Source: Adineta ricciae
Lineage: Eukaryota
DNA length: 13,323 nt
Reading direction: 5' to 3'
Assembly: GCA_905250025.1 (NCBI GenBank)
Contig: CAJNOJ010000319.1
Location: 97,550 to 110,872 of the forward strand
Made by a program: the position numbers and the translations under genes. The notes under the pieces were generated by a model that searched no databases, was not told where the DNA came from, and saw nothing but the letters and a program-made list of their open reading frames with translations. Positions 1 through 13,323 of the stretch are shown one piece after another (positions within the stretch are counted from its first letter, which is position 1; each line of letters begins with the position of its first letter).

Positions 1-276
1 TGCCGTTGATGCACCAACATCAGTAATGTGCCAAATCTGACATAAATATTTCGAAGGACTTACGGAAAAGATTTCAAAAAAGATCGCAAAAGGTATTACA
101 AGAATTCCAACACATAAATCAGCTAAAGATAATGAAACAATGTAATAATATGTGGCATTATGAAGAGATCTTTCGCGATAAACTGCTAAGATAACAAGAC
201 AATTTCCAACAATTGTTAATAAACAAATGAAGATTAACCAAAATATTCCCTTGAGAAACATTTTCATGACGAACAT
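1..276 (-). CDS. Class A (biogenic-amine-like) GPCR, N-terminal part (TM1-TM3). Partial; continues past the window start.
   Basis: Minus-strand frame open from ATG at 276..274 to position 1. It reads MFVMKMFLKGIFWLIFICLLTIVGNCLVILAVYRERSLHNATYYYIVSLSLADLCVGILVIPFAIFFEIFSVSPSKYLCQIWHITDVGASTA. Rhodopsin-family hallmarks are present: GNxLVI..V in TM1, SLAxADL in TM2, C..W...DV..STASI in TM3. The listed ORF 158..403(-) is an overlapping out-of-frame artefact. Confidence 0.6.
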   Translation of the reverse strand, partial: MFVMKMFLKGIFWLIFICLLTIVGNCLVILAVYRERSLHNATYYYIVSLSLADLCVGILVIPFAIFFEIFSVSPSKYLCQIWHITDVGASTA

Positions 277-898
277 CAAAAGTAAATAGATCAAAATGTA
301 ATATCGTCAATCTGTTGACCTTGTGAGATGAATAATGAGCAGCAATGTAGGCGTGAAGATAGACGAATATTTCATCTGGAAGTCTTTCAATGAAATCCAT
401 CAAATAAATAATTCAATAACGGAAGGAAATCTTCAGAAGATTTGCGTTGCAACGATATTGATTCTCTTCGATTTATTAAAGATGAAAATGATCATCTCAG
501 TGTTTCCTTGTGATCTTTTCAAAAAAAAGATTTATTCAATCATTGTTTACAAAAACAAAATTTGGTTTATTTTTCTTCTTTGGAATCAATTAACAATGTC
601 GTTGAAAATCCGTTTCCATTGTTAAAATCACAGAGAACAAAGAAGAAAAAGAAAAATGATAAATTTGGATCTCAAATCGAATTGAAATGAGACAAAATTT
701 AACCTCATCCACCTTGAGGTCTTCGTCGAGAAGAAGGTCGCCATCCACATGAATCTCCATTAGAACGATTCGATTGTCCTGTTAATGGATTATGATCTGA
801 TGAACGATATTTCAATCGAGTTGGCTTTTCATCTGTTGTCGATTTCATTGCTTCGAGTTTCTAAAAGAAAAAGTTTGTTTATAATGAAATGAATCATT

Positions 899-1339
899 TC
901 AAAAACCAACCGCTTGTTTTTCTGCTAAACGACGTTGAGCTTCTTGTTCATATCGTTTCTGTTGTTGTTCTCGCACTTTTTCCATCTGTTCATATTGATT
1001 TATTCTTTGTTCTTTTCAAGAGAAAAATCAAATTTCGTCTGTTGTTTTTTTCTTCTTCTTCAAATCTTTTCAACTGACCTGTGGATAAACGATTTTCTCT
1101 TGGAGAATTTCGTTTTTTATAATAAATCACAATTGCAATAAGTAAAACAACGAAAACAATCCATTGATAAGTAACTAAAATCAAATTTCAATGACAAATT
1201 TTGATTAAAAAAGAAGAATTTTCTTTCTTTTACTTATTTTGTCGAAAAAAGATTTTTCAAAGAAATTAGTTTTTTCCTCTGATTGAGAGAAAATTTGTGA
1301 ATTTGAATCCACTTCATCTTCAATTGTCACATCATCCAT
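899..1339 (-). CDS. Small single-pass membrane protein with a charged, coiled-coil-like C-terminal tail (3-exon model, ~104 aa).
   Basis: Model complement(join(899..1011,1079..1174,1234..1339)). ATG at 1339..1337. It reads MDDVTIEDEVDSNSQIFSQSEEKTNFFEKSFFDKI | ITYQWIVFVVLLIAIVIYYKKRNSPRENRLST | EQRINQYEQMEKVREQQQKRYEQEAQRRLAEKQAVGF*. Introns are 59 and 67 nt (GT..AG) and the phases agree. Exon 2 overlaps listed ORF 990..1184(-). Alternatively, the unspliced reading of that ORF could be correct. Confidence 0.4.
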
Positions 1340-1983
1340 TTCTTCAAGAAATAAAATGAAAAGAAAGCAAAAACTACGTCGATAACAACAAAACCAATGA
1401 AAATATTTTTCAACAAAAATACAGATGTCACTGAATTTCATTTAAATTATCAAAACAGTTCAAAAATTCTTTTTTTCATTTCAATTGTACTTTTAGTCTG
1501 AAAAATTCGCTTTCTCTTCACTGATCAATGGTATCAAAGTCCATTTTCTCAGTGCAAAATCTTTTTGTGACTGATGTAATCAATTCTGGGTCACATATTT
1601 TGTTAATATCACTCTAATAATAACGATTGTCGATAAAAGACAATCTGTGAAACATTAGTATTCGCCCTACAAATGTTGTGTTACACTTTTTATTATTATT
1701 TCAATGAAGTCAAATTCAAATATATGTCGATAAATGATTTTTGATCTTCAATGGGCGTCACAGATGTTTTTTGAAAAGATTTCTTTTGAAATGTAAATGT
1801 TTGTTTTTCTCGCGACGATAGAATGTGATAATGATTTCAAATGTTAATAACAATAATTTCTTATCGAAAAAAGAAAGTTCTTGAAAAACAAATAAGAAGA
1901 AAATAATCTTTGTCATATCTTTTAACTTCTCATCTTTTCAAAAGTTAAAGACGTGTTGATAAGTAAGATAAATAAAATTGATA

Positions 1984-1986
1984 ATG
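1984..1986 (+). CDS. ABC transporter, putative single-codon initiator exon (ATG|gtaaaag).
   Basis: ATG is followed directly by a GTAAAAG donor. A 66-nt intron reaches the acceptor at 2052, and phase 0 joins frame to give MDQSKELAVSVQNGCKNYG... Alternative phase-0 first exon: 1529..1576 (ATGGTATCA...ACTGAT|gtaatc). Confidence 0.3.
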
Positions 1987-2052
1987 GTAAAAGATCAAAT
2001 TTCACCAACGTCGAATGAAAAATGAACATTTTTTTTGTCTTTCAATTAAAAG

Positions 2053-2168
2053 GATCAATCAAAAGAATTAGCTGTCAGTGTTCAAAATGGATGTAAAAAT
2101 TACGGACATTTTTGGAATTCTACACGTGTTTTACACGATATTACACTTAACGTTCCCATTGGAATTAT
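2053..2168 (+). CDS. ABC transporter exon. N-terminus of the nucleotide-binding domain, up to Walker A.
   Basis: Frame reads DQSKELAVSVQNGCKNYGHFWNSTRVLHDITLNVPIGI. Donor GTAAAT at 2169. A stop codon lies just upstream in this frame (2047-2049), so the exon must begin at the acceptor ag at 2051-2052. Confidence 0.7.
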
Positions 2169-2227
2169 GTAAATGAATATTTTTCCGTTGAAAAACAAAA
2201 CGAAAGAAAATGCGAATTTGTTCGTAG

Positions 2228-2542
2228 ATATGGTTTATTAGGACCAAGTGGATGTGGAAAAACGACGTTATTACGTTGTATTGTTGGTCGTTTCGAATTG
2301 AATTCAGGTGAAATTTTATTATTTGGAAAACATCCTGGAAGTTATGGACATGAAATTCCTGGCCGATCAGTTGGTTATATGCCACAAGAAAATGCTCTTT
2401 ATAAGAATTTTTCTATTTCGGAAATGCTTCATTATTTCGGTCGTCTTCATCATATGTCGAAAAAGGAAATTTTATCTCGAGTAGAATTTCTCATTCATTT
2501 TCTTGATTTACCTTTAAAAACGAGAAAAGTTGCTCAATTAAG
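2228..2542 (+). CDS. ABC transporter exon. Walker A (GPSGCGKTT) and Q-loop region.
   Basis: Acceptor ttcgtag at 2221-2227. Reads (I)YGLLGPSGCGKTTLLRCIVGRFELNSGEILLFGKHPG...YMPQENALYKNFSISEMLHYFGRLHHMSKKEILSRVEFLIHFLDLPLKTRKVAQL. Donor AG|GTTGGT at 2543. Confidence 0.85.
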
Positions 2543-2590
2543 GTTGGTGTTTTCCTTCGAATGAAAATTGAAATGTATTCTTTTGAATAG

Positions 2591-2698
2591 TGGTGGACAA
2601 CAACGTCGTGTTTCATTGGCATGTGCACTTCTTCAACAACCGAAATTATTAATTCTCGATGAACCGACTGTCGGAGTTGATCCTTTACTTCGAGAAAA
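2591..2698 (+). CDS. ABC transporter exon. ABC signature (SGGQQRR) and Walker B (LLILDEP).
   Basis: Splicing restores (S)[36 protein letters not shown]. Introns are 48 nt (2543-2590) and 45 nt (2699-2743). Confidence 0.85.
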
Positions 2699-2743
2699 GT
2701 CTGTTCGAAACAAATTGTCTCTATTTAATACATTTCATTTTAG

Positions 2744-2837
2744 AATTTGGACACATTTAATTGAAATTTGTCAATCAAGTCAAACGACGATCATTATCAC
2801 AACTCATTACATTGAAGAAGCAAGAAAAGCCAATCGA
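2744..2837 (+). CDS. ABC transporter exon. H-loop (TTHYIEEA).
   Basis: Reads (K)[31 protein letters not shown]. Donor GTAAGA at 2838. Confidence 0.8.
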
Positions 2838-2893
2838 GTAAGAGAAAATATTTGTATGAAAAAAAAAGAAAAAAAACACCAAGTTTTGTAAAG

Positions 2894-2968
2894 GTTGGAT
2901 TGATGAGAAGTGGAAGAATGTTGGCAGAAGATGAACCATTGAAGCTTTTAAATCAATATAATCAAACA
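2894..2968 (+). CDS. ABC transporter exon. C-terminal end of the nucleotide-binding domain.
   Basis: Reads VGLMRSGRMLAEDEPLKLLNQYNQT. Acceptor ttttgtaaag, donor GTTGTT (phase 0). Confidence 0.7.
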
Positions 2969-3023
2969 GTTGTTTTTGAAAAGAAACAAATTTTCGTTGT
3001 CAAAACGAATTTGTTAATTTTAG

Positions 3024-3334
3024 AGTTTGGAAAATGTTTTTCTTCATTTGTGTTTCAATGATCAAAATCGAATTGAAAGAGAAAATCTTCCAATTTCATT
3101 CGCAAATCCTTTAACAACAGAAGTTAACACAGATAATTTTCTTCCAATGAATACAAATCAAATCAAAAGTTCGTTTTCATCGAGTTTGTTTTTATTCAAC
3201 ATTTTCGTTGGTTTGATCTTTGAAGAAAGTTCCAAACCAAAAAAAATTCTTCGAGATTATTTGGTTTTTCCTAAATTACATAAAATTCTCGCATTGATTA
3301 TCAAAGATTTAACAGTTATCAAAACAAATATCGG
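3024..3334 (+). CDS. ABC transporter exon. End of NBD (LENVFLHLC) plus the linker.
   Basis: Acceptor ttaattttag. Reads SLENVFLHLCFNDQNRIERENLP...KLHKILALIIKDLTVIKTNIG. This corresponds to the LEDVFLKLC / KxRALLWKN block of ABC-2/ABCH proteins. Donor GTAAGA at 3335. Confidence 0.6.
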
Positions 3335-3381
3335 GTAAGAAAGAGAAATTCGCTGAAAAATCTGAAAATTCTTTTGGAAAG

Positions 3382-3446
3382 ATTTTTATTTTTTCAATTT
3401 TTAATTCCTGTTATTCAAGTTTCGTTGTTTTGCCTTTGTATTGGAC
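3382..3446 (+). CDS. ABC transporter exon. ABC-2 membrane domain, TM1.
   Basis: Reads (G)FLFFQFLIPVIQVSLFCLCIG(R), which matches the conserved FQFLLPVVQVILFCLAIGR block. Donor GTAAGT at 3447. Confidence 0.7.
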
Positions 3447-3499
3447 GTAAGTGACACAAGGAGAATGACAAAAAATTAACTGAAATGAATTTTTTTCAG

Positions 3500-3615
3500 G
3501 TGATCCGAAAGCTCTTCCAATGGCACTTTTTAACAACGAATCTCTCAACAATTTCCCCACGGGCAATGAGAGTTTACAACTCCTTAGTCAAATCAATTCG
3601 GATCAAATTCATTTT
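3500..3615 (+). CDS. ABC transporter exon. Start of the extracellular loop (RDPKxLP..NNE motif).
   Basis: Acceptor ttttttcag. Reads (R)DPKALPMALFNNESLNNFPTGNESLQLLSQINSDQIHF. Confidence 0.75.
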
Positions 3616-3664
3616 GTAAAAAACAAATTCTTTTTCCGAGAAATTATTATCGTTTCTTTTCAAG

Positions 3665-3768
3665 AATTCGTTTAATAATTTCGATCAAGCATTGAACTCG
3701 GTAAAACAAGGTCGATATTGGGGTTTAGCTGAAATTCGAACGAATTTTACTGAAGCGATCAATGACAA
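3665..3768 (+). CDS. ABC transporter exon. Extracellular loop.
   Basis: Reads NSFNNFDQALNSVKQGRYWGLAEIRTNFTEAINDK. Acceptor ttcttttcaag. Confidence 0.75.
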
Positions 3769-3827
3769 GTTTGTTTTTCCCCTCTTTCTCTCTTCGTTTT
3801 GAAAAAATCATTTTTATTGCTGAGCAG

Positions 3828-3898
3828 ATTTTTCAAATTTCAAACGGATCCATTAACATTAAATACATCGTCAATTCATTTATATCTCGATATGACAA
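3828..3898 (+). CDS. ABC transporter exon. Extracellular loop (YLDMTN motif).
   Basis: Reads (K)FFKFQTDPLTLNTSSIHLYLDMT(N). Donor GTAAAG at 3899. Confidence 0.7.
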
Positions 3899-3952
3899 GT
3901 AAAGTCGTTGAATGAAATTCGAAATGTTCGATGAATTATTCTTTGTAATCAG

Positions 3953-4320
3953 ATCAACAAGTGACATTTACAATGCAAAATGTGATTTTAAATGGAACAG
4001 AAATGTTTTTAAAACGATTTTTATCTGAACATGGCTTTGATCCTTCGATTGTTAATCCACCTGTAATTATTGAAAATCCCATTTATGGAAGTTTAACTCC
4101 GAAATTTTTGAATTTCGCGGCACCGGGAATGATGATATCGGTCATATATTTTTTAGCGCTCTGATATTTGTTGTTGAGAAAAAAAGAAGGTCTTTTAGAA
4201 CGAAGTTGGATCGCTGGTGTAACGATCATCGAAATTATGTTTTCACATATCATTGTCAAGTTTTTTATTCAAATTATTCAAGTTGTACTTTTAATTGTTT
4301 TTGCACATTTCATCTTCGAA
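3953..4320 (+). CDS. ABC transporter exon, TMD core. It contains an in-frame TGA at 4162-4164.
   Basis: Reads (N)QQVTFTMQNVILNGTEMFLKRFLSEHGFDPSIVNPPVIIENPIYGSLTPKFLNFAAPGMMISVIYFLAL*YLLLRKKEGLLERSWIAGVTIIEIMFSHIIVKFFIQIIQVVLLIVFAHFIFE. Conserved ABC-2 blocks lie on both sides of the stop. No GT..AG pair can remove it while keeping frame. Confidence 0.65.
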
Positions 4321-4372
4321 GTTTGATTTCGTCGATTTCTCATTTTCTTTTCTCATTTTCTCTTCATTTTAG

Positions 4373-4445
4373 GTGGAATTTAAAGGATCATTATTATTAT
4401 CAATGGCTTTGATTTTTCTTCAGGGAATTTGTGGAATGACTTATG
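4373..4445 (+). CDS. ABC transporter exon, TMD.
   Basis: Reads VEFKGSLLLSMALIFLQGICGMTY(G). Acceptor ttcattttag. Confidence 0.75.
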
Positions 4446-4497
4446 GTTAAATTCAATGACATGAAAATTTGCATTTCATTTTTCTGTTTTTCTTTAG

Positions 4498-4584
4498 GTT
4501 TATTGATCTCTTCATTCTGTGAAAATGAAATGCAAGTTATGGAAGTTGCTATGGGAAGTGTTTTCCCCATGTTACTTAGTTCAG
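4498..4584 (+). CDS. ABC transporter exon, TMD.
   Basis: Reads (G)LLISSFCENEMQVMEVAMGSVFPMLLSS(G). Acceptor tttctttag. Confidence 0.75.
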
Positions 4585-4641
4585 GTTTGTTGAATTGTAT
4601 TGGAAATGATTTTTTTTGTATTGATTGCTTTTCATTCGAAG

Positions 4642-4746
4642 GAATTCTTTGGCCAGTCGAAGGAATGCCATCAGTTATGCGTTTTCTCAGTCACTTTACA
4701 CCGTTAACATATCCTGTTGAAGCGATTCGATGTATCGCAGCACGAG
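4642..4746 (+). CDS. ABC transporter exon, TMD.
   Basis: Reads (G)ILWPVEGMPSVMRFLSHFTPLTYPVEAIRCIAAR(G). Donor GTGAGA at 4747. Confidence 0.8.
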
Positions 4747-4805
4747 GTGAGAGAATAATAGGGAATGATTTTTGTTTGTTAAAAACGAATATTTCTCTTT
4801 GAAAG

Positions 4806-4912
4806 GTTGGTCATTTGTTTACTACAAAGTTTGGCTTGGATTTCTCATAACGAGTTCCTGGAGTTTAGCATTTTTCATTATCGCTGCTATTTTACTCGCG
4901 TTGAAAAAATAA
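4806..4912 (+). CDS. ABC transporter terminal exon, last TM helix.
   Basis: Reads (G)WSFVYYKVWLGFLITSSWSLAFFIIAAILLALKK*. TAA at 4910-4912. AATAAA at 4937-4942. Total CDS is 2,118 nt, about 705 aa, which is typical for an ABC-2/ABCH half transporter. Confidence 0.8.
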
Positions 4913-4936
4913 TTCTCCTTTTTTTTCTTTGCATTT

Positions 4937-4942
4937 AATAAA
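4937..4942 (+). terminator. Polyadenylation signal AATAAA of the ABC transporter gene.
   Basis: AATAAA lies 25 nt after the TAA stop. Confidence 0.5.
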
Positions 4943-5046
4943 GAGTATCGTTTGGTAAAACAAGGAAATGAATTTGATTGGCTTAGGAAAAGAAAGAACA
5001 TATATGATGGAAAAAGTCATCTCAATCTCTTTTCTCCAATCTAAAA

Positions 5047-5087
5047 ATGTCTGATAACGTTGAAATTGTAAATCCAAATGAACAAAG
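5047..5087 (+). CDS. SLCO/OATP organic anion transporter, exon 1.
   Basis: Reads ATG MSDNVEIVNPNEQ + ag. Donor GTAAAC. After a 53-nt intron it joins in frame to TM1. Confidence 0.6.
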
Positions 5088-5140
5088 GTAAACATAAATG
5101 TTTTTCTCTGGAAAAAATCCTTCATGTTCTGTTTTTGAAG

Positions 5141-5679
5141 AAAATGTTCATTTTATACAATTCGATCGTATTTTATTCTTTTATGTTTCATTGTCTTATG
5201 TCAATCAATGATCACATCTGCATATTTAAGTTCGATTATTTCTTCAATTGAGAATTATTATGGATATTCAACAGAATTAATTGGCATTGCTCTGAGTTCA
5301 TATGATCTCATTTCAGTTATTTCAATTCCTTTATTTTCTTTCATTGGTTCGAGATTTAATCGTGCAAAATTAATCTCTTTTGGCTCATTTTTCTTTGCAT
5401 TGGGAAATATTTTGTTTATTTTACCATATTTTATCAATGGTTATGATATTAATCAATTGACCAATCAAACGAAAAATTCGTCATTCGATGAGTTTTGTTC
5501 TTCGAATATTTCAATTGAATCTCTTTATGAACCTTTCACACGACTTTCTCCATCTTGGTCCTATTATGTGATCATTCTATCAATGATTATCATGTCGATA
5601 GGTTCGAGTCCATTTTATACTTTGGGAATTACCTATTTAACTGATCATTTGAATAAAGATGATCAACCGATTTACACAG
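5141..5679 (+). CDS. SLCO/OATP exon 2 (TM1-TM4).
   Basis: Reads (R)KCSFYTIRSYFILLCFIVLCQSMITSAYLSSIISSIENYYGYSTELIGIALSSYDLISVISIPLFSFIGSRFNRAKLISFGSFFFALGNILFILPYF...LTDHLNKDDQPIYT. This corresponds to the OATP blocks KSSIT.IERRF, GSF(E)IGN, YFGSR.HRPK and YLDD. Donor AG|GTAAGG. Confidence 0.8.
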
Positions 5680-5729
5680 GTAAGGTTTTCTTTGAACAAA
5701 AAAAAAGAATTTTCTTTTGATGAAAAAAG

Positions 5730-6005
5730 GAATTTTGTATGGAATGGTCGCTTTGGGACCTGGAATTGGTTTCGTTTTGGGTTCATATTTTGGATCGAAA
5801 TGGATAAATATAAATGATGAAATCGATTCGTTTGATTTGAATAAAAATGATCCTCGATGGATTGGAAGATGGTGGGCGGGATTTTTAATTTCCTCGACCT
5901 TGTTGTTTCTTCTTTCCATAATTTTATTTACATTTCCATCTTCTTTATCAAATCATTCTCAATTACAACAAACAAATCAAAATGAATCTTCAACAAATTT
6001 TCAAG
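5730..6005 (+). CDS. SLCO/OATP exon 3.
   Basis: Reads (G)ILYGMVALGPGIGFVLGSYFGSKWININDE...DPRWIGRWWAGFLISSTLLFLLSIILFTFPSSL.. This corresponds to OATP 'G.GPA.GF..G', 'PRW.GAWW.GFL'. Confidence 0.8.
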
Positions 6006-6058
6006 GTCACAACTTTTTTTTCTCTTTGTCATATCCAAAACAACTTTTTTTCTTTCAG

Positions 6059-6135
6059 TTTTTCGCAAGAATCTCATTGAATTATTGAAAAATGTCACAT
6101 ACATCTCCATTTCATTGATCAATGCAATTGAAAAT
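6059..6135 (+). CDS. SLCO/OATP exon 4.
   Basis: Reads (V)FRKNLIELLKNVTYISISLINAIEN, matching OATP F.KSL..LL.NP.Y. Acceptor tctttcag. Confidence 0.7.
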
Positions 6136-6197
6136 GTATAGAAAATCTTTTTCTTTCTTCCAAAAAAGAAATATTTCCTAATTGTTGATCAATTTAG

Positions 6198-6584
6198 ATT
6201 TTAGTTGTTTTATTTACAACATATTTGATCAAATACATTGAATCAGTATTTAATTATTCCTCATCATATTCGAGTATCTTAACAGGATTAATTTTATTAC
6301 CATCAGCTATACTTGGAACAATCTCAGGTGGATTTTTAGTTCGACGTTTTCATTTAACAATCTTTGGTTGCATTAAATTGATCTTTATATCATGTTTGAT
6401 TTCTTTGATAAGTTTAATTTTGATTTTATTCTTAAAATGTCAATCAAATATTCGATATTCATTTGATGATCAATGTTCTCAAAAGTGTCATTGTTCCTCA
6501 TTGATTTACGAACCAGTTTGTTATGAAAATCAAATCAATTATCTTTCTCCATGTTATGCAGGTTGTACAAACAAAAATCAAACG
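6198..6584 (+). CDS. SLCO/OATP exon 5, including the first half of the Kazal-like domain.
   Basis: Reads ILVVLFTTYLIKYIESVFNYSSSYSSILTGLILLPSAILGTISGGFLVRRF...CQSNIRYSFDDQCSQKCHCSSLIYEPVCYENQINYLSPCYAGCTNKNQT. The cysteine spacing matches the Kazal-like domain found in the large extracellular loop of OATPs. Confidence 0.75.
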
Positions 6585-6725
6585 GTAAGGTCAACATATT
6601 TTCTTCTAATTAACGTCAAAACTTTGGAAAATAGAAATCATCGTTATTTTTTATCAAAGTTGAGATGACCTTTTTATGTTTGGATCGAAAGAAAAGTTCC
6701 TTATTTTTTTTTCTTTTCTTTTAAG

Positions 6726-7232
6726 AATTATCTGAATTGTCATTGTTTATCAAATGGAACGATGGTTGAAAAAGGTTTATGTGAGAATAATTGTCAAATG
6801 GAATTGATATTTTTCTTTGTAATTTTATTTTTGGTGACATTTTTCGAAACTTTAATGGCAACACCACAATTAATGATTATTTTACGTTCGACAACAGAAT
6901 CTTTGCAATCATTTGGATTGGGTTTAGAAAATTGTCTGATGAAGATTCTTTCTCAAATTCCAACACCGATTTTATTTGGAATTTTGATTGATAAACAATG
7001 TTTATTTTGGTCGAAATCGTCACTATTTAATCATTCAACATCGTGTTTGATTTACAATCAAAAGCAATTTTCATTTACTTTATTTTTGACGATCACTCTT
7101 ATCAAAACGATTTCGTTTTTCTTTATTTTATTTTTATTTTTATTTCATTGGAAAAAACAGAAAAGCCTTTTAATAGAAAATCCTGGAGAGCGAGAACATC
7201 TTTTAAATAATTCATCGACAGATATTCAATAA
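6726..7232 (+). CDS. SLCO/OATP terminal exon (end of Kazal domain, TM10-12).
   Basis: Reads NYLNCHCLSNGTMVEKGLCENNCQ...SFGLGLENCLMKILSQIPTPILFGILIDKQCLFW...* TAA at 7230-7232. An AATAAA overlaps the stop. Total CDS is 1,827 nt (609 aa). Confidence 0.8.
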   Translation, partial: NYLNCHCLSNGTMVEKGLCENNCQMELIFFFVILFLVTFFETLMATPQLMIILRSTTESLQSFGLGLENCLMKILSQIPTPILFGILIDKQCLFWSKSSLFNHSTSCLIYNQKQFSFTLFLTITLIKTISFFFILFLFLFHWKKQKSLLIENPGEREHLLNNSSTDIQ

Positions 7233-7496
7233 AATCATATTTGCGACAAAAAATTTCCTCTACCTTGATTCAATACGCAGCTATTCGATTAATTCAGGTA
7301 AAACTGTCTGATGTGATGATTCTCTTACCAATGAGTAATTAACGATAGTTCGAAGGATTGCTTTTTTTTTGTCAGGGCAAAACGAGTTAAATTATTGCGA
7401 ATGATTGATAAATGAAGAACGAGAAAAATAAATGAGCTGCGTTTAGTCGTTATATAAAACGTTTATTTGTTTGTCGACATTTATTTTCGTTGAATT

Positions 7497-7591
7497 ATGT
7501 CACGACGAAAAGGTAAAAAACAAGTGGAGACCTTGGCTTGGATCACCGATGATGAAGCTGAATTTTGGACGGTTCGATTTCTGATTTTTCA
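7497..7591 (+). CDS. Possible 5' exon of the low-complexity protein gene.
   Basis: Reads ATG MSRRKGKKQVETLAWITDDEAEFWTVRFLIF + ca. Donor GTAAGA at 7592. A 39-nt intron reaches acceptor ag at 7629-7630 and joins in frame to the 7668 ORF. The intron is unusually short, so this is low confidence. Confidence 0.25.
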
Positions 7592-7630
7592 GTAAGAAAT
7601 TTTTTACACGAAGTCTTGTTGTTTTTAGAG

Positions 7631-8207
7631 TATCACACCAAATCGTAAAATTGCCGAACATGAGAAAATGAAAAAATATGCTTCAGACAATGACCTACCT
7701 GACGGTGATCATTTTCGTTTCGATCGTTCGTTAAAAGCAAAAAAACAACAAGAGAATCTACTTGAGAAGGAAAATCAACGTCATTCGGCGGATAATTTCA
7801 ATTCAAAAAAAAATTCATTGGATCAAGTGAAAGAAATCAATGAAGAAAATCAACATTTTATCGACAAGCCAACGATTGAAAGGGAAAAAAACGATAAATT
7901 CTTTTCTCGATTAATTCAAGAATTAAAAGGTTCGTCAATCGATAATGAAGAAAATGTTCAATTGAATCAACAAAATAGTTTCGAAGATTATCAACAAATC
8001 AGTACAAATGACGTCATTGCAAATCAAAATCAACAGCAATCGACAATCTCCAATGAAGAAAACGAAACAAATCTACTTTTCGATCAATTTCATTCGTTTA
8101 TCGATGAAATTACCGAAGAATCGTTTGTGATTACTGGAAGTTTAGATGAAGATACACTTCTTAATCGGAGAAGTAGACGTGCAAAAGGTTTTTCAGCTTT
8201 CAAATAA
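7631..8207 (+). CDS. Low-complexity, N/Q/E/D-rich acidic protein with a basic C-terminal end (RRSRRAKG). Function unknown.
   Basis: Listed ORF 7668..8207 (179 aa) runs to TAA. The upstream in-frame extension to 7631 depends on the putative splice. Composition is coding-like, and AATAAA motifs lie downstream. Confidence 0.55.
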
Positions 8208-8768: not shown

Positions 8769-8775
8769 TATAAAA
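8769..8775 (+). promoter_or_regulatory. TATA-like box (TATAAAA) ~85 bp upstream of ATG 8855.
   Basis: The sequence context is ccaTATAAAAtcc. Its position fits a core promoter for the secreted-protein gene. Confidence 0.3.
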
Positions 8776-8854: not shown

Positions 8855-9374
8855 ATGCGAACGACATTCTTTATACTCCTATCTGCAATTGCGTTTCTCC
8901 AACTCCCATCATGTTCATTTGCGAGTAAGACTTTCTTTTTATACTTTGCTATGTCTTTCAACTTCATCTTTGCCTCTTCTTCTTCTCCTCAAGCTGCCCA
9001 AACGAAAACAGCGGCAGTCGATGCTCATATGGTCGTGAATAAAGGTGGAACTTTGAAAGGAACTATGGTTATTACAAATTGTGATAAAACTTCTCTCACA
9101 CAATCGAAAGAAACTTTAACAAACACATTAACGAAAAAAGTACAAGCTGATGATACCAAAAATTCAAATTCGAAAGTTAGTGTCACGGGTATTCGAGAAT
9201 TAGAACCAGGAACACTTGCTTTCGATTACGAATGCACCGAATCTAAAAATCCCGAAAAAGCTAAAGAAACGTTGAATACCTGTGTGAAACACGATGATGT
9301 GAAGAAAGTTATTGCAAAATCATCATCCAATGTTGCTACAACCCAGGCAAAACAACAAGCAAATGTTCAACAAA
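8855..9374 (+). CDS. Secreted modular protein, exon 1: signal peptide plus Cys domain 1 (degenerate, 3 Cys).
   Basis: Reads MRTTFFILLSAIAFLQLPSCSFA (signal peptide) ... TNCDKTSLTQSKE...YECTES...NTCVKHDD... An in-frame 69-nt GT..AG segment at 8925-8993 (gtaaga...cctcaag) is probably an intron. Donor A|GTAAGT at 9375, phase 1. Confidence 0.75.
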
Positions 9375-9537
9375 GTAAGTGACCTTCTATCTAATAGAAC
9401 TTTCGATTATCTGTAGTGCAAGATTTCTTTCTTGACGTCGTTTACAAAGGAAATGAAGAATTACTTTGGCAATATCATTTTATCTTATTTTATCTATTAT
9501 CCACTTCTTTTCTCTAAATAATATTTTCTATTCGTAG

Positions 9538-10161
9538 CTAAAGCTCAACCGGCTACTCAAGCACCAAAAGCTGCAACAGCAGCCCCGAAATCTTCCCAAA
9601 GCAAACCAACCAAAGCTGTTAATCTCGATTGTGACAAAACACATCAAATCGTCGCTCAAGATGAGAATTCAATTACTGGTGTATTTACTGTTCATTCTTG
9701 TAAAGCATCACGTTTCACTCAGAAACAAAGTCGATGCACATCTCTCGGTAGTAAACTCAGTTCATTAGTCACCGATCGTGTAGCTAAAACTGGTGATAAG
9801 AAACCATGTAGCGTTAATATCGTTAAAGCAAGTGGTACATCAACTTCAACTGAATTTCGGTACACACTTCCATGCGAGAAAAGCCGTCAAAAAGCTGTTA
9901 TTGATTCGCTAAAAGACGCTTGTAAAGACAAAAATTTTGCAGATACAATTACAAATATCAAACAAAAAGAACAAGGAGAATCGAGTTCGTCCGAAAGTGA
10001 TGAAAATAACAAGAGTCCAAGTAAACCAGTTAAAGTTGTGCAAACTGAACAGCCAAAGACAACCACGACAGCCAAACCAACAGAGAAGCCAACGACTGCC
10101 AAGCCCACAGAAAAGCCAACGACTGCCAAGCCTACAGAGAAGCCAACGACAGTTAAGACAA
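9538..10161 (+). CDS. Secreted modular protein, exon 2: Cys domain 2 (6 Cys) plus an S/E-rich stretch and the PT-rich linker.
   Basis: Reads (T)KAQPATQAPKAATAAPKSSQSKPTKAVNLDCDKTHQIVAQDENSITGVFTVHSCKASRFTQKQSRCTSLGSKLSSLVTDRVAKTGDKKPCSVNIVKASGTSTSTEFRYTLPCEKSRQKAVIDSLKDACKDK...EQGESSSSESDENN...TTTTAKPTEKPTTAKPTEKPTTAKPTEKPTTVKT. Phase-1 acceptor and phase-1 donor (A|GTGAGT). Confidence 0.8.
10077..10157 (+). repeat. Three tandem 27-nt coding repeats (PTEKPTTAK).
   Basis: Units ccaacagagaagccaacgactgccaag / cccacagaaaagccaacgactgccaag / cctacagagaagccaacgacagttaag. The antisense ORFs 9887..10184(-) are artefacts of this repeat. Confidence 0.8.
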
Positions 10162-10294
10162 GTGAGTCGAATTTTGCCCTTCATTCACAAGTATACTTTC
10201 TTTTCGTCACTCAAAATGAATGCACATATGTGTGGTGATGACAGAGACATGTAGAACAAAAATAAGGATTCAGTACAATCATGTACAATTTTAG

Positions 10295-10674
10295 CTCCAC
10301 GCAAAACCACCAAGGCCGGTGCAACGAAGAAACCACCAGCCACAACACGTAAAGTTGAAGTGAAGAACTGCGATGACCATGACTACAACGACAAAGACCA
10401 AGTCTTGACCGGTAAAATCGTTGTTCAAGACTGTCCATGTGAGAAGCGATTCGCTAACAATGCATCACGTCTTGCTGCCGTTTCATCAACTGTCTGCACA
10501 CAACTCCGAAACTACTTCCAACAACTGTATGGAACAAAGATCAACTACCCATGCAGTCTCAAAGTAGTCGCAGGAAACAAAACGCACACCGTGTTTGCAT
10601 ACACCGTTAACGTACCACAATCAGAACAGAGCAAAGCCAAAGCGGCAGCCAAGAAGGCCTGTCAAGATGATCAA
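10295..10674 (+). CDS. Secreted modular protein, exon 3: Cys domain 3 (6 Cys).
   Basis: Reads (T)PRKTTKAGATKKPPATTRKVEVKNCDDHDYNDKDQVLTGKIVVQDCPCEKRFANNASRLAAVSSTVCTQLRNYFQQLYGTKINYPCSLKVVAGNKTHTVFAYTVNVPQSEQSKAKAAAKKACQDDQ. It is paralogous to domain 2: NCD...LTG..V..C, PCS..V...T..F.YT, ACxDD. Donor GTAAGT, phase 0. Confidence 0.8.
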
Positions 10675-10772
10675 GTAAGTGAAAGCGGCCGTGATAGAAG
10701 TTACACATGGCCGCAAAGCAGACACTCGAGAAAAAGAGAAACGAGTGTTGAGGAATGTTTTACTTATTCTAG

Positions 10773-10995
10773 GTGAAAAAAGTTATCGAACAAGAGTCGC
10801 TCAAACGCGACGGCGATGACGATAGTGATAGTAGCAGTTCGGAAGAAACCACACGCGCGCAAGCCAAGCCTGTAACGACCCAAAAGGCTACTGAGAAGCC
10901 GACGGAAAAGCCAACAACTGCCAAGCCCACAGAGAAGCCGACGGAAAAGCCAACTACTTCCAAGCCCACAGAGAAGCCGACAACAGTTAAGACAA
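10773..10995 (+). CDS. Secreted modular protein, exon 4: acidic/Ser stretch plus PT-rich linker 2.
   Basis: Reads VKKVIEQESLKRDGDDDSDSSSSEETTRAQAKPVTTQKATEKPTEKPTTAKPTEKPTEKPTTSKPTEKPTTVKT. Donor A|GTGAGTCGAATTTTG is identical to the donor after linker 1. Phase 1. Confidence 0.8.
10887..10994 (+). repeat. Tandem ~39-nt coding repeats (PTEKPTEKPTTAK/SK).
   Basis: acagagaagccgacggaaaagccaac(a/t)act(g/t)ccaagccc is repeated. The antisense ORF 10769..11047(-) is an artefact. Confidence 0.75.
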
Positions 10996-11055
10996 GTGAG
11001 TCGAATTTTGTTTCGTCTTTATAGGTGTCATTTTTCTCTTCACTCAAAATGAATA

Positions 11056-13183
11056 CCTAGAGTAGTGTGAAAGATTGTAGAATCAATCTCTTCCTTCGCT
11101 TTTTCTTGGCTTTTGAAACGTCACTGATGTTTTTTCGTTCTACATTTTACACTATTACAACAATTCAAAGATGTTCTTCCATATTTTATTCGAATAAAAT
11201 ATGAAAGAATATCTATGAATCGATCCCTTTTCCGAGAGAAAGGGTTATACAGCGGTTAACTCCTGGGCTCAAAAAGCTTAAAGTTTGTCTCTCTGTCTGT
11301 CCTATCCAATCAGAAAGCAGCATTTGTTAAATCATTGAAATTTACGGATGGCATCCAAAAACTGAGTACTAGTAAGGTAATCTGGGTCGAGGAACTCAAA
11401 TTCCTTGTTAGTTTTTCCTTCACTCACTAAGATCCATCTTCTTCCTTTCTCTTTCTGAAGCAGATGTTTTTCTGAATCTTTTCTAAAATCTCGTATAGAA
11501 GGTAGTGGATGAATCGCTATTTTTGGGTATGATGTGTGCGAGATAGCGGTTTTGGTCGTTGCACCAAAAAGATTTAGCATATCTTACATTATCATATTTG
11601 CCTTGTGAGCTACGATACGTGACGTCTTTTGATAGAATTTTACGGGAAATAGATCCCCTAAAGAGTATACTCGTCAGTGTAATTGTATCTTATTATCCAT
11701 AATGATAACGGCTAGCGGCGAGTGACTGACCGGAGTTTGGCCTACGAATGACTAACCATTAAGCGGTGGGAGTTTAGTAAACATAGCTAGTACTTGAAAA
11801 ATATTCTCTGACAAATGGGTGATTGATTCGGTTCATGAAAAAAGAAGAGTTTTTGTCTTGTATTGACTCTCGTGTGGGACACAACGCCATGATCTAGCTC
11901 GGGAACAGTAGTAACCGCAGTGTCCTATTTGTTCTTCAATGAATCGGAATATGTTCAACAGTAGACCAGTTCTTTCAATAAAGGGTCGGCGAATCTAGGG
12001 TGAGGGTTACTTGTTGTACTAGTGCAAAATGTACAACGAAAAAACATCAATGACATTTTAAAAAATCAAGAAACAACGAAGGGAGAAATTGATTGTATAA
12101 TTTTTTCCCACCACTGTATATGACAATAGATAAAACTAACGTACTAGAGAGTAATCGTTGACGATTAAGAAATACTGTATCGAGCGTTTCATGCGTTGAA
12201 GAACTAAAGCAGACAGAGAGATCAATATTCTACAAACTTCTTCGTTTTCGAGCCCCTATTTTTCAGCCATGCATTGCAACTAACGATAGTTTCCATCGCA
12301 TTTCTTGGTAGTAAAGAGAGAAATATCAATGTTGGGCGAGGCGGTTACGGCGGGGAACTTTACAGATCAATACTAGCTACACAATCAAAGCTAGTTTTTA
12401 CATCATTTAAAACTATGAAAACTGTTTCTTTCACAAAAGTTAATTGTCGCCTTCAGAAGAGCGCTCATCAAACTCATTTTCATCATCGCGATACTCTTTA
12501 CATCCTGTTCTTCATATTCACTCAGCCATTCTCTATCACCATCGGATACACACACAACCGCATCTAAACCCTGAGCTTTATTTTCAACTAAAGCGTTAAT
12601 AACGCAGCTTCCATTTACCCATACAAATACCCTCTTCTATGTGCAAAAGCATCTTCAAAGACTTACTAACTCTAAAAATCTTTTGCCTAACTCGTGCAAC
12701 TTCACCGATGTCTACTATTCAGACCCGCCGACTTAACCCACTGCCTAAGCCAACAGCATGTAAAGTTTCCTCAATCCGACACATGCAGAAACTGAATGTG
12801 TACGGCATGAACGAAAACTTTTCGCTTCATGTTAAAAATATCCTAAAGCGATCAGCGTACAGGGAGCTTTCGCAGCACATTCTCCAACTCTTTTCAAAAG
12901 CTATAATCCTGTGCGTCAAGCCAAGATTCCCTCTAACGAATCTCAGGTTCAATTATACCGCCGCAACCTATCGATTGGCCCCACATCCGCCTAACACCGT
13001 ACCAAGGGAATTTACGTTACCGCAGACACTATCGCACACAGTGAGAAGCGACCCAATCAAGAACATTCCCTCCACATAAGTCATAGTACGCTAACGACAA
13101 AAGCACACATTACCGATATAATATTCTATCTCAGAAGCCCTACAGCGACGCACTTTCTAAGAGCCATCTACTTTTCTGCCTTT
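11056..13183. mobile_element. ~2.1 kb compositionally distinct insertion inside the intron of the newest module. Possibly a degenerate transposable element or other foreign-derived DNA.
   Basis: The equivalent intron of the older module (10162-10294) is ~130 nt. Here the homologous flanks (cactcaaaatgaat ... atcaCATACAATTcTAG) are separated by ~2.1 kb. That stretch has higher GC, strong A+C strand skew from 12400-13180, and no convincing spliced gene. It contains minus ORF 11332..11580 and a start-less, protein-like minus frame at ~12385-12650. Confidence 0.3.
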
Positions 13184-13205
13184 CACCTATCACATACAAT
13201 TCTAG

Positions 13206-13323
13206 CTCCACGCAAAACCACCAAGGCCGGTGCAACGAAGAAACCACCAGCCACAACACGTAAAGTTGAAGTGAAGAACTGCGATGACCATGACTACAAC
13301 GACAAAGACCAAGTCTTGACCGG
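13206..13323 (+). CDS. Secreted modular protein, exon 5 (partial): start of a further copy of Cys domain 3.
   Basis: The 118 nt from the acceptor ag to the window end are 100% identical to 10295-10412. The same phase-1 junction continues the reading frame. Confidence 0.6.

Follow-up and report, generated by a model that had tools for sequence, protein, structure and literature searches.

A tandem-module gene of the bdelloid rotifer Adineta ricciae probably encodes a secreted, mucin-like protein built from an unclassified domain family

In a 13,323-nucleotide (nt) stretch of DNA from the bdelloid rotifer Adineta ricciae (contig CAJNOJ010000319.1; the whole stretch is referred to here as the window), we identified what is probably the 5′ part of a large gene for a secreted, mucin-like 'beads-on-a-string' glycoprotein belonging to a bdelloid-only family. 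From its start codon at position 8855 to the window end, the + strand encodes a signal-peptide-like N-terminus followed by diverged copies of one domain, with acidic Ser clusters and basic Thr/Pro/Lys-rich linkers between them. The locus is a real, strongly conserved A. ricciae gene, already public as an unnamed product; what is new is an unclassified domain family in a mucin-type architecture. The gene defines a strongly constrained, lineage-specific domain family that has no Pfam entry.

The spliced model proposed in a preliminary description of the sequence, join(8855..9374,9538..10161,10295..10674,10773..10995,13206..>13323), is open throughout and has GT-AG at all junctions, and its product is identical to residues 1–559 of a deposited A. 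ricciae protein of 568 residues (P0001; CAF1392550.1/CAF1396417.1, UniProt A0A815K950) annotated only as 'unnamed protein product'. The deposited protein differs from the model in two respects: a 69-nt GT-AG intron (8925..8993), which the model had overlooked, is removed, and the donor at 10995 is read through to a stop at 11024 instead of being spliced to 13206. With this correction, exon 1 (8855..8924, ending in phase 1) carries the start codon and the 23-residue signal-peptide-like MRTTFFILLSAIAFLQLPSCSFA, the N-terminus of P0001, and intron 1 (phase 1, with a polypyrimidine tract) is spliced out so that TCATTTGCGA is joined to CTGCCCAAACG at 8924/8994. Exon 2 (8994..9374, 381 nt, phase 1-1) encodes the first domain, D1 (9011–9325, 3 Cys), and the start of linker 1, and exon 3 (9538..10161, 624 nt, phase 1-1) the rest of linker 1, the second domain, D2 (9618–9956, 6 Cys), an acidic cluster and a PTEKPTTAK linker. 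In exon 4 (10295..10674, ending in phase 0), linker 2 finishes with the basic TPRKTTKAGATKKPPATTRK and the third domain, D3, follows up to ...ACQDDQ; exon 5 (10773..10995, ending in phase 1) supplies the final D3 helix (VKKVIEQESL), then an acidic Ser cluster and a PTEKPT linker. A 2,210-nt intron (10996..13205) separates exon 5 from exon 6 (13206..13323), which is cut by the window end and begins another module of the D3 type; at the junction 10995/13206, ACAGTTAAGACAA is joined to CTCCACGCAAAACC. All these features lie on the + strand, as does a TATAAAA at 8769..8775, 80 nt 5′ of the ATG, a possible core promoter element that is only a weak consensus match.

The same coordinates correct the earlier statement that every module junction is in phase 1. 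The intron phases are 1, 1, 1, 0 and 1; phase 1 applies to module-to-module junctions only, and the phase-0 intron (10675–10772, junction 10674/10773) lies within D3, before its last helix, so that exons 4 and 5 are symmetric only jointly (380 + 223 = 603 nt). The position of this phase-0 intron, before VKK[TV]IE, is kept in a Rotaria locus (L003) and in an orthologue on a 47.8-kb metagenomic contig (ENA ERZ26165376 ctg348995; L006), which presumably comes from a bdelloid relative.

The N-terminus has the features of a signal peptide, as first described. MRTTFFILLSAIAFLQLPSCSFA shows a basic start, a 13-residue hydrophobic core, Ser at −3 and Ala at −1 (judged by rule), and removal of intron 8925..8993 takes out a second hydrophobic stretch, so that MRTTFFILLSAIAFLQLPSCSFA directly precedes TAQTK. 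Two relatives (P0095, P0108) and the L006 orthologue begin alike, and the latter carries an equivalent hydrophobic in-frame insert at the position matching the intron. B-type domains (defined below) have recurrent N-x-T sequons (NNA[ST], GN[KSQ]TH). On this evidence from sequence, the protein is probably secreted.

We distinguished three domain subtypes, C (D1, N-terminal and Cys-poor), A (D2) and B (D3). Comparison of D2 with D3 by BLASTP gave an E value of 1.6e-9, and D1 matched a hidden Markov model (HMM) built from A- and B-type domains only at E 8.8e-8. Profile–profile comparison yielded E 1.6e-29 between the A- and B-types and E 2.5e-19 between a strict C-type alignment (A2) and a mixed alignment that includes D1 (A1), and the window domains scored against the family profile at E 2e-42 to 3.5e-58. 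Judged by these scores, the resemblance is beyond chance and D1, D2 and D3 are diverged paralogues of one domain of approximately 115 residues. The paralogy claimed in the preliminary description is thereby upheld, and D2 and D3 fit the Cys motif it proposed for all domains, but D1 does not: its 'NCDK' pairs in the alignment with C27 of D3, the Cys that follows the long strand, rather than with the leading DCDK. D1 is a divergent, Cys-poor subtype with three Cys, not six.

Selection on the domain was estimated from L002, a 3,224-nt A. ricciae contig that is approximately 90% identical to the window and presumably represents the homeologue of the locus. The D3 exon differs between the two copies by 21 synonymous and 1 nonsynonymous changes (ratio of nonsynonymous to synonymous divergence, dN/dS, 0.01), and the overall divergence is similar in exons and introns (7–11%). 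The low ratio indicates strong purifying selection on the domain and a functional gene. This bears on one alternative, in which the gene encodes a fast-diversifying immune or pathogen-binding effector whose module variation serves to recognise fungal or bacterial enemies. Lineage restriction of the family and the variation of copy number and module order between species are what such an effector would be expected to show, but selection is strongly purifying, adjacent copies are nearly identical rather than diversified, and Pfam scans detected no lectin or other recognition domain, and we consider an effector role very unlikely.

The domain matches no named family, as the preliminary description had held. 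With the whole protein as query, Pfam returned no match at E ≤ 10, 35 single domains and 10 relatives yielded only noise below threshold, and sequence profiles of the Protein Data Bank (PDB) contained no relative; after these searches a known family was rejected at the level of sequence. AlphaFold models of D1 (predicted local distance difference test, pLDDT, 88.6; predicted template modelling score, pTM, 0.78) and D3 (pLDDT 83.6, pTM 0.76) agree in the order of their elements, which is hairpin, long helix, hairpin, helix, helix (bb-a-bb-a-a). We therefore predict with good confidence that the domain folds as a two-layer alpha/beta sandwich. A Foldseek search with the models against the PDB returned nothing at E ≤ 1e-3.

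Among known sandwich domains, SEA (PF01390) gave no match in Pfam scans of the whole protein and the 35 domains at E ≤ 1 to 10. The predicted order b-b-a-b-b-a-a differs from the ferredoxin-like b-a-b-b-a-b of SEA and would be compatible with a permuted version of it. In the conserved G-[KVT]-[IVM]-[VI]-V motif, the Gly (G20 of D3) lies inside a long strand (E17–25) and not in a turn, and the A- and B-types have no Ser/Thr nucleophile after it; SEA-like self-cleavage at G-x-[IV]-V-V was rejected on account of the mid-strand Gly.

A second lead came from the Pfam family PF23206 (PCDH15_12th), the MAD12 domain, which has been described as ferredoxin-like, with the order b-a-b-b-a-b and a helix after it (bioRxiv 10.1101/460097). 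Two of 20 C-type members matched PF23206 below threshold, the best with 15.7 bits and E 0.015 (gathering score 27 bits), collinearly over profile positions 5–84 of 115 and starting at the domain's second strand; a Pfam scan of 15 sequences from the mixed alignment A1 gave no PF23206 match. A weak collinear match that begins at the second strand fits a strand-permuted SEA/MAD sandwich in which the edge strand comes from the N-terminus, and we regard this sub-threshold relationship as a lead, not as membership. Should the domain nevertheless be a very distant member of the SEA/MAD superfamily, the gene would be an ordinary SEA-type mucin. The two sub-threshold matches, the best of them collinear, point that way, as does the layout of tandem domains plus linkers shared with MUC16. 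Against it, the best score is well under 27 bits and sits amid comparable noise (TonB_2, GyrB_insert), A- and B-type members have no PF23206 match, the element order is bb-a-bb-a-a and not b-a-b-b-a-b, and full HMMER scans reach no cadherin or SEA protein. We judge membership doubtful, while ranking it the most credible of the alternatives considered here, and continue to treat the domain as unclassified.

By analogy, the closest design appears to be the tandem SEA region of MUC16 and the closest fold that of cadherin MAD12. MUC16 (CA125) and the window gene both have an extracellular beads-on-a-string arrangement of alpha/beta sandwiches of approximately 110–120 residues and linkers of Pro/Thr/Ser (PTS) type, with near-identical units amplified in tandem. 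Unlike MUC16, the window protein has domains without a Pfam SEA match and with the order bb-a-bb-a-a instead of b-a-b-b-a-b, lacks the G|SVVV autoproteolysis turn (the Gly being mid-strand), combines three diverged subtypes in one protein, places an acidic Ser cluster behind each A and B domain, has short, Lys-rich linkers and belongs to a bdelloid-restricted family. MAD12 (in protocadherin-15, cadherin-23 and CELSR) shares with the window domain an extracellular location, metazoan origin and a helix after the core, along with the weak collinear Pfam match, which is sub-threshold throughout. It occurs as a single copy beside the membrane anchor of cadherins, whereas the window domain is repeated in tandem in a protein without cadherin repeats, and the edge strand, C-terminal in MAD12, would be N-terminal in the window domain if the permutation suggested by the predicted element order is correct.

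The segments between domains have a regular organization. Behind each A and B domain come first an acidic Ser cluster and then a basic, Thr/Pro/Lys-rich tandem-repeat linker; in the window these are ESSSSESDE after D2 (9978–10004, exon 3) with the PTEKPTTAK linker (10059–10160), and DGDDDSDSSSSEE, of the DDDSDSSSSEE type, after D3 (10809–10847, exon 5) with the PTEKPT linker. Tandem Repeats Finder (TRF) detected a 27-nt repeat of 3.9 copies encoding (KPTEKPTTA)n at 10051..10152 (84% matches, score 134) and a 39-nt repeat of 2.3 copies within the PTEKPT linker at 10893–10981, all on the + strand. Linkers L2 and L3 consist of 32% Thr+Ser, 18% Pro and 25% Lys+Arg (Thr+Ser+Pro 50%); composition and DNA repeats thus agree with the Thr/Pro/Lys-rich linkers of the preliminary description. 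Acidic clusters also stand behind A and B domains in Rotaria, A. steineri and metagenomic relatives. One Rotaria sp. Silwood2 protein (P0004, residues ~430–561) has one B and one A module followed by a long Gly/Pro/His repeat of the GPKGPHGPHETE type and no PT linkers, indicating that spacer chemistry is variable within the family.

Several observations indicate that the gene runs past the window, as had been proposed. The 118 nt of exon 6 (13206–13323) are identical to 10295–10412 (118/118), and the whole 135-nt match is 98% identical, its three mismatches all falling in the 17 intron bases. The donor at 10996 (GTGAGTCGAATTTTG) repeats the one used at 10162 over 15 nt without a difference, and the sequence around the acceptor at 13205 is similar to that at 10294; splicing 10995 to 13206 keeps the phase and leaves the frame open. 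The contig of a second assembly that covers the window (L001) stops 6 nt beyond the window end, which we also count in favour of a longer gene. On the homeologous contig L002, an annotated partial protein (P0009) splices ...TVKT to TQRKTTK..., the equivalent of this junction. The first 127 nt of L002 equal its last 127 nt, a self-overlap that implies a collapsed tandem unit of 3,097 nt, as a de Bruijn assembler yields; the A. ricciae genome is a SPAdes assembly of Illumina reads (PMC7943196).

The metagenomic contig L006 shows how the orthologous gene is laid out. A signal peptide with the small insert leads to one C-type domain, nine A modules that share a single open frame, four B modules and then at least 15 additional repeat units. 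The same phase-0 intron interrupts each B module, and a 'VKKTIEEASIK..DDDSDSSSSEE..linker' exon comes after each of them. The further units (20898–24641, 3′ of the B modules) are tandem repeats of approximately 250 nt, each with an exon of approximately 200 nt encoding GGKGSSESSDEDGKSS..PSGYTKGTKPSVGTKATVAPSNNTRPTYATRGTPATHGTTQHKSSEC and a short intron, and the array is still running at the locus end. The window gene thus very probably continues past the window end, and the deposited models of 568–578 residues probably cover no more than the 5′ portion of proteins that are much larger.

The alternative is that the short deposited model is true, with read-through at 10995 and an end at 11024 (...TVKTSESNFVSSL*), the copy at 13206 being a separate fragment, a dead duplicate or an assembly-end artefact. 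Both P0001 and its homeologue P0008 are annotated in this way, an AATAAA lies at 11193–11198 inside the intron, and the L001 contig breaks off 6 nt past the window end. Yet the donor and acceptor repeat those of the preceding module, the splice preserves phase and frame, all 118 exon bases agree against 3 differences in the 17 adjoining intron bases, the homeologue's partial model contains exactly this type of splice, L002 closes on itself, and the L006 orthologue has four serial B modules. We find the short model distinctly improbable; the intronic AATAAA could leave room for a short polyadenylated isoform beside the longer product.

The 2,210-nt intron corresponds to the 133-nt intron 10162–10294 at its two ends (~60 nt at the 5′ end and ~19 nt at the 3′ end), which indicates that the large intron is the small one plus approximately 2 kb of inserted DNA. 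Within it lies a foldback element of approximately 1.07 kb (11053–12121), resembling a miniature inverted-repeat transposable element (MITE), with terminal inverted repeats of approximately 110 nt (arms 11053–11163 and 12011–12121, identical at 91 of 109 aligned bases) and, in its central part, a 29-nt palindrome (11163–11220). No coding capacity was found in the element, and Pfam searches of the open reading frames (ORFs) of the intron and of an upstream 179-residue ORF gave no match.

When 1.84 billion representative proteins were scanned in full with HMMER, 101 matched at E ≤ 1e-3 and 70 of these at E ≤ 1e-10. Organism names were looked up for 20 matched clusters, in addition to those shown in two indexed searches, and every named match was a bdelloid: A. 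ricciae, A. steineri, Rotaria socialis, R. magnacalcarata, R. sordida, two Rotaria 'Silwood' species or Didymodactylos carnosus. The other HMMER matches were environmental proteins, and two of the matches read (P0100, P0109) appear to be repeat proteins unrelated to the family. The second indexed search, with the C-type profile, added only five matches, all bdelloid or metagenomic. The family, of approximately 100 clusters at 50% identity, is thus seen only in bdelloid rotifers among named matches. One environmental relative (P0098) has the source 'merc' and run ERR1712110; if this source is a metatranscriptome catalogue, at least one family member is transcribed. Horizontal transfer is common in bdelloids. 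A horizontal origin was rejected here: no convincing bacterial, fungal or plant homologue was among the matches read or looked up, and the gene has spliceosomal introns.

The layout of signal peptide, C-type domain, A/B modules, acidic cluster and basic PT linker recurs in A. steineri (P0134), R. socialis (P0127) and L006. Module number expands and contracts among relatives, as anticipated, reaching nine A and four B modules in L006, and module order varies from C-A-B-B in the window gene to C-B-A in A. steineri P0134. The preliminary description attributed the expansion to shuffling of phase-1 symmetric exons, an explanation that we rejected on finding that relatives carry 2, 3 or 9 modules in one uninterrupted exon or ORF: a Rotaria locus (L003) has a B tail and two A modules in a single exon, L004 has three A modules in a single ORF, and the nine A modules of L006 are equally intron-free. 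Neighbouring module copies are nearly identical. Intron-free arrays, varying order and near-identical copies point instead to tandem segmental duplication or unequal recombination; the 1-1 intron phase permits frame-keeping duplication in the window gene but is not the cause of expansion. Such near-identical tandem units also cause short-read assemblies to break at the module array.

Cys patterns across the 105 distinct domain copies are irregular. Odd counts are common and only ~3–4 positions are conserved: the core Cys are at positions 6, 27, 87 and 103 in the A-type and at 6, 27, 29 and 103 in the B-type, and extra pairs (40 with 55 or 65; 48 with 67) come and go. The suggestion that six Cys form three disulfides does not extend to the family, and such a pattern is limited at most to D2 and D3 of the window gene. 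In the N-terminal C-type domains, one Cys (residue 82 of the D1 model, ...FDYEC, window ~9236–9238) is invariant in 20 of 20 sequences; it is the sole Cys in 4 of them, and 11 of the 20 have an odd Cys count. An invariant Cys that often has no partner inside its domain raises the possibility of a chain-to-chain link, and it may be a free thiol that forms an intermolecular disulfide.

From these features we infer secretion, O-glycosylation, phosphorylation, disulfide bonding and chain linkage on the basis of sequence; any statement on tissue or physiological role is pure conjecture. The protein would enter the secretory pathway and be cut after Ala23. Its domains would be stapled by one to three disulfides involving the core Cys 6, 27 and 103, together with 87 (A-type) or 29 (B-type), the linkers would be densely O-glycosylated and extended, and the S-x-E clusters might be phosphorylated. 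The resulting hydrated chain of alternating anionic and cationic blocks would form an extracellular coat, gel or adhesive, in which the invariant, often unpaired Cys of the N-terminal C-type domain may join chains by disulfide. Module number would be altered by tandem duplication or unequal recombination of near-identical units.

Four points weigh against a secreted, mucin-like product of a large gene. The linkers are short, 43–68 residues each, and 'mucin-like' therefore refers to composition only; the irregular and often odd Cys numbers weaken the simple picture of disulfide-stapled domains; both full deposited models, P0001 and P0008, end by read-through of the 10995 donor; and the C-terminus lies outside the window, so that a membrane anchor may be present. 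The last point leads to a further alternative, a membrane-tethered cell-surface mucin or adhesion molecule resembling MUC16 with its tandem SEA domains or cadherins with MAD, and anchored through a transmembrane segment or glycosylphosphatidylinositol (GPI) in its 3′ part. The closest folds, MAD12 and SEA, both occur in membrane-tethered ectodomains, and the L006 orthologue is still repeating at its locus end, but no obvious transmembrane segment follows the domains in the family proteins read, which are mostly fragments. A tethered protein seems unlikely to us, and we retain secretion as the preferred reading.

Gel-forming mucins (MUC2/MUC5) offer a further comparison. In them, as in the window gene, small globular domains with Cys break up the PTS tandem repeats, and the intermolecular disulfides formed by terminal domains in those mucins might have a counterpart in the invariant, often unpaired C-type Cys. 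In contrast to gel-forming mucins, no VWD, CysD, TIL or CTCK domain was found by Pfam in the window protein or 10 relatives, the linkers measure tens of residues rather than thousands, and multimerisation of the window protein is hypothetical.

To our knowledge, the extracellular materials of bdelloids are almost uncharacterised at the molecular level, and a literature search that covered mucins, adhesives and lineage-specific secreted proteins of bdelloids brought up no relevant paper and no account of this gene. Research interest in these animals concerns their desiccation and radiation tolerance and their ancient asexuality. We advance, as a speculation with rather little probability in its full form, that bdelloids evolved their own giant extracellular polyampholyte glycoproteins, in which a strand-permuted SEA/MAD-like domain alternates with phospho-Ser acidic and O-glycosylated Lys/Thr/Pro blocks and chains are joined via an N-terminal free Cys into a secreted gel or temporary adhesive. 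If true, this material may serve attachment during crawling or surface protection in desiccation. The family itself shows that a mucin-type architecture, a tandem-amplified sandwich domain plus PTS linker, has arisen with a building block other than that of vertebrate SEA mucins. Short-read bdelloid assemblies truncate or collapse genes of this kind, and for the present the locus is of value as a defined target in studies of expression and secretion.

A second kind of repeat accompanies the family in Rotaria magnacalcarata, where A-type modules of a 1,045-residue protein (P0128, CAM4786064.1) are interleaved with a Cys-rich repeat of approximately 95 residues (..GTYDCN.NSKNIVPGYCVL...HCNSDPNCGGYEVTTNAGWHAAYDRNG..). 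Pfam matched this repeat only to L_biotic_typeA and a Zn-ribbon, with no matched stretch passing alone, and it may be another unclassified bdelloid extracellular module.

The window DNA is AT-rich and eukaryotic in character, and an Rfam search over it gave no match. It is 99.89% identical to contig CAJNOR010003236.1 of GCA_905250095.1 (L001), from which it differs, upstream of ~7232, by one mismatch and two indels (12–13 nt in total). The two accessions of P0001 lie on 16-kb and 111-kb contigs, which fits 'reference' and 'maxhap' assemblies of the same isolate. Upstream of the gene, the region ~1–8207, as annotated on L001, includes the end of a seven-transmembrane (7TM) receptor gene and, at ~700–1335 on the − strand, a gene with a weak Selenoprotein S match, followed by an ABC transporter (ABC_tran + ABC2_membrane, ~1985–4915), an OATP/SLCO transporter with a Kazal-like Cys motif (~5050–7232) and a 217-residue protein without a Pfam match (~7497–8207). 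These neighbours have no obvious functional tie to the mucin-like gene.

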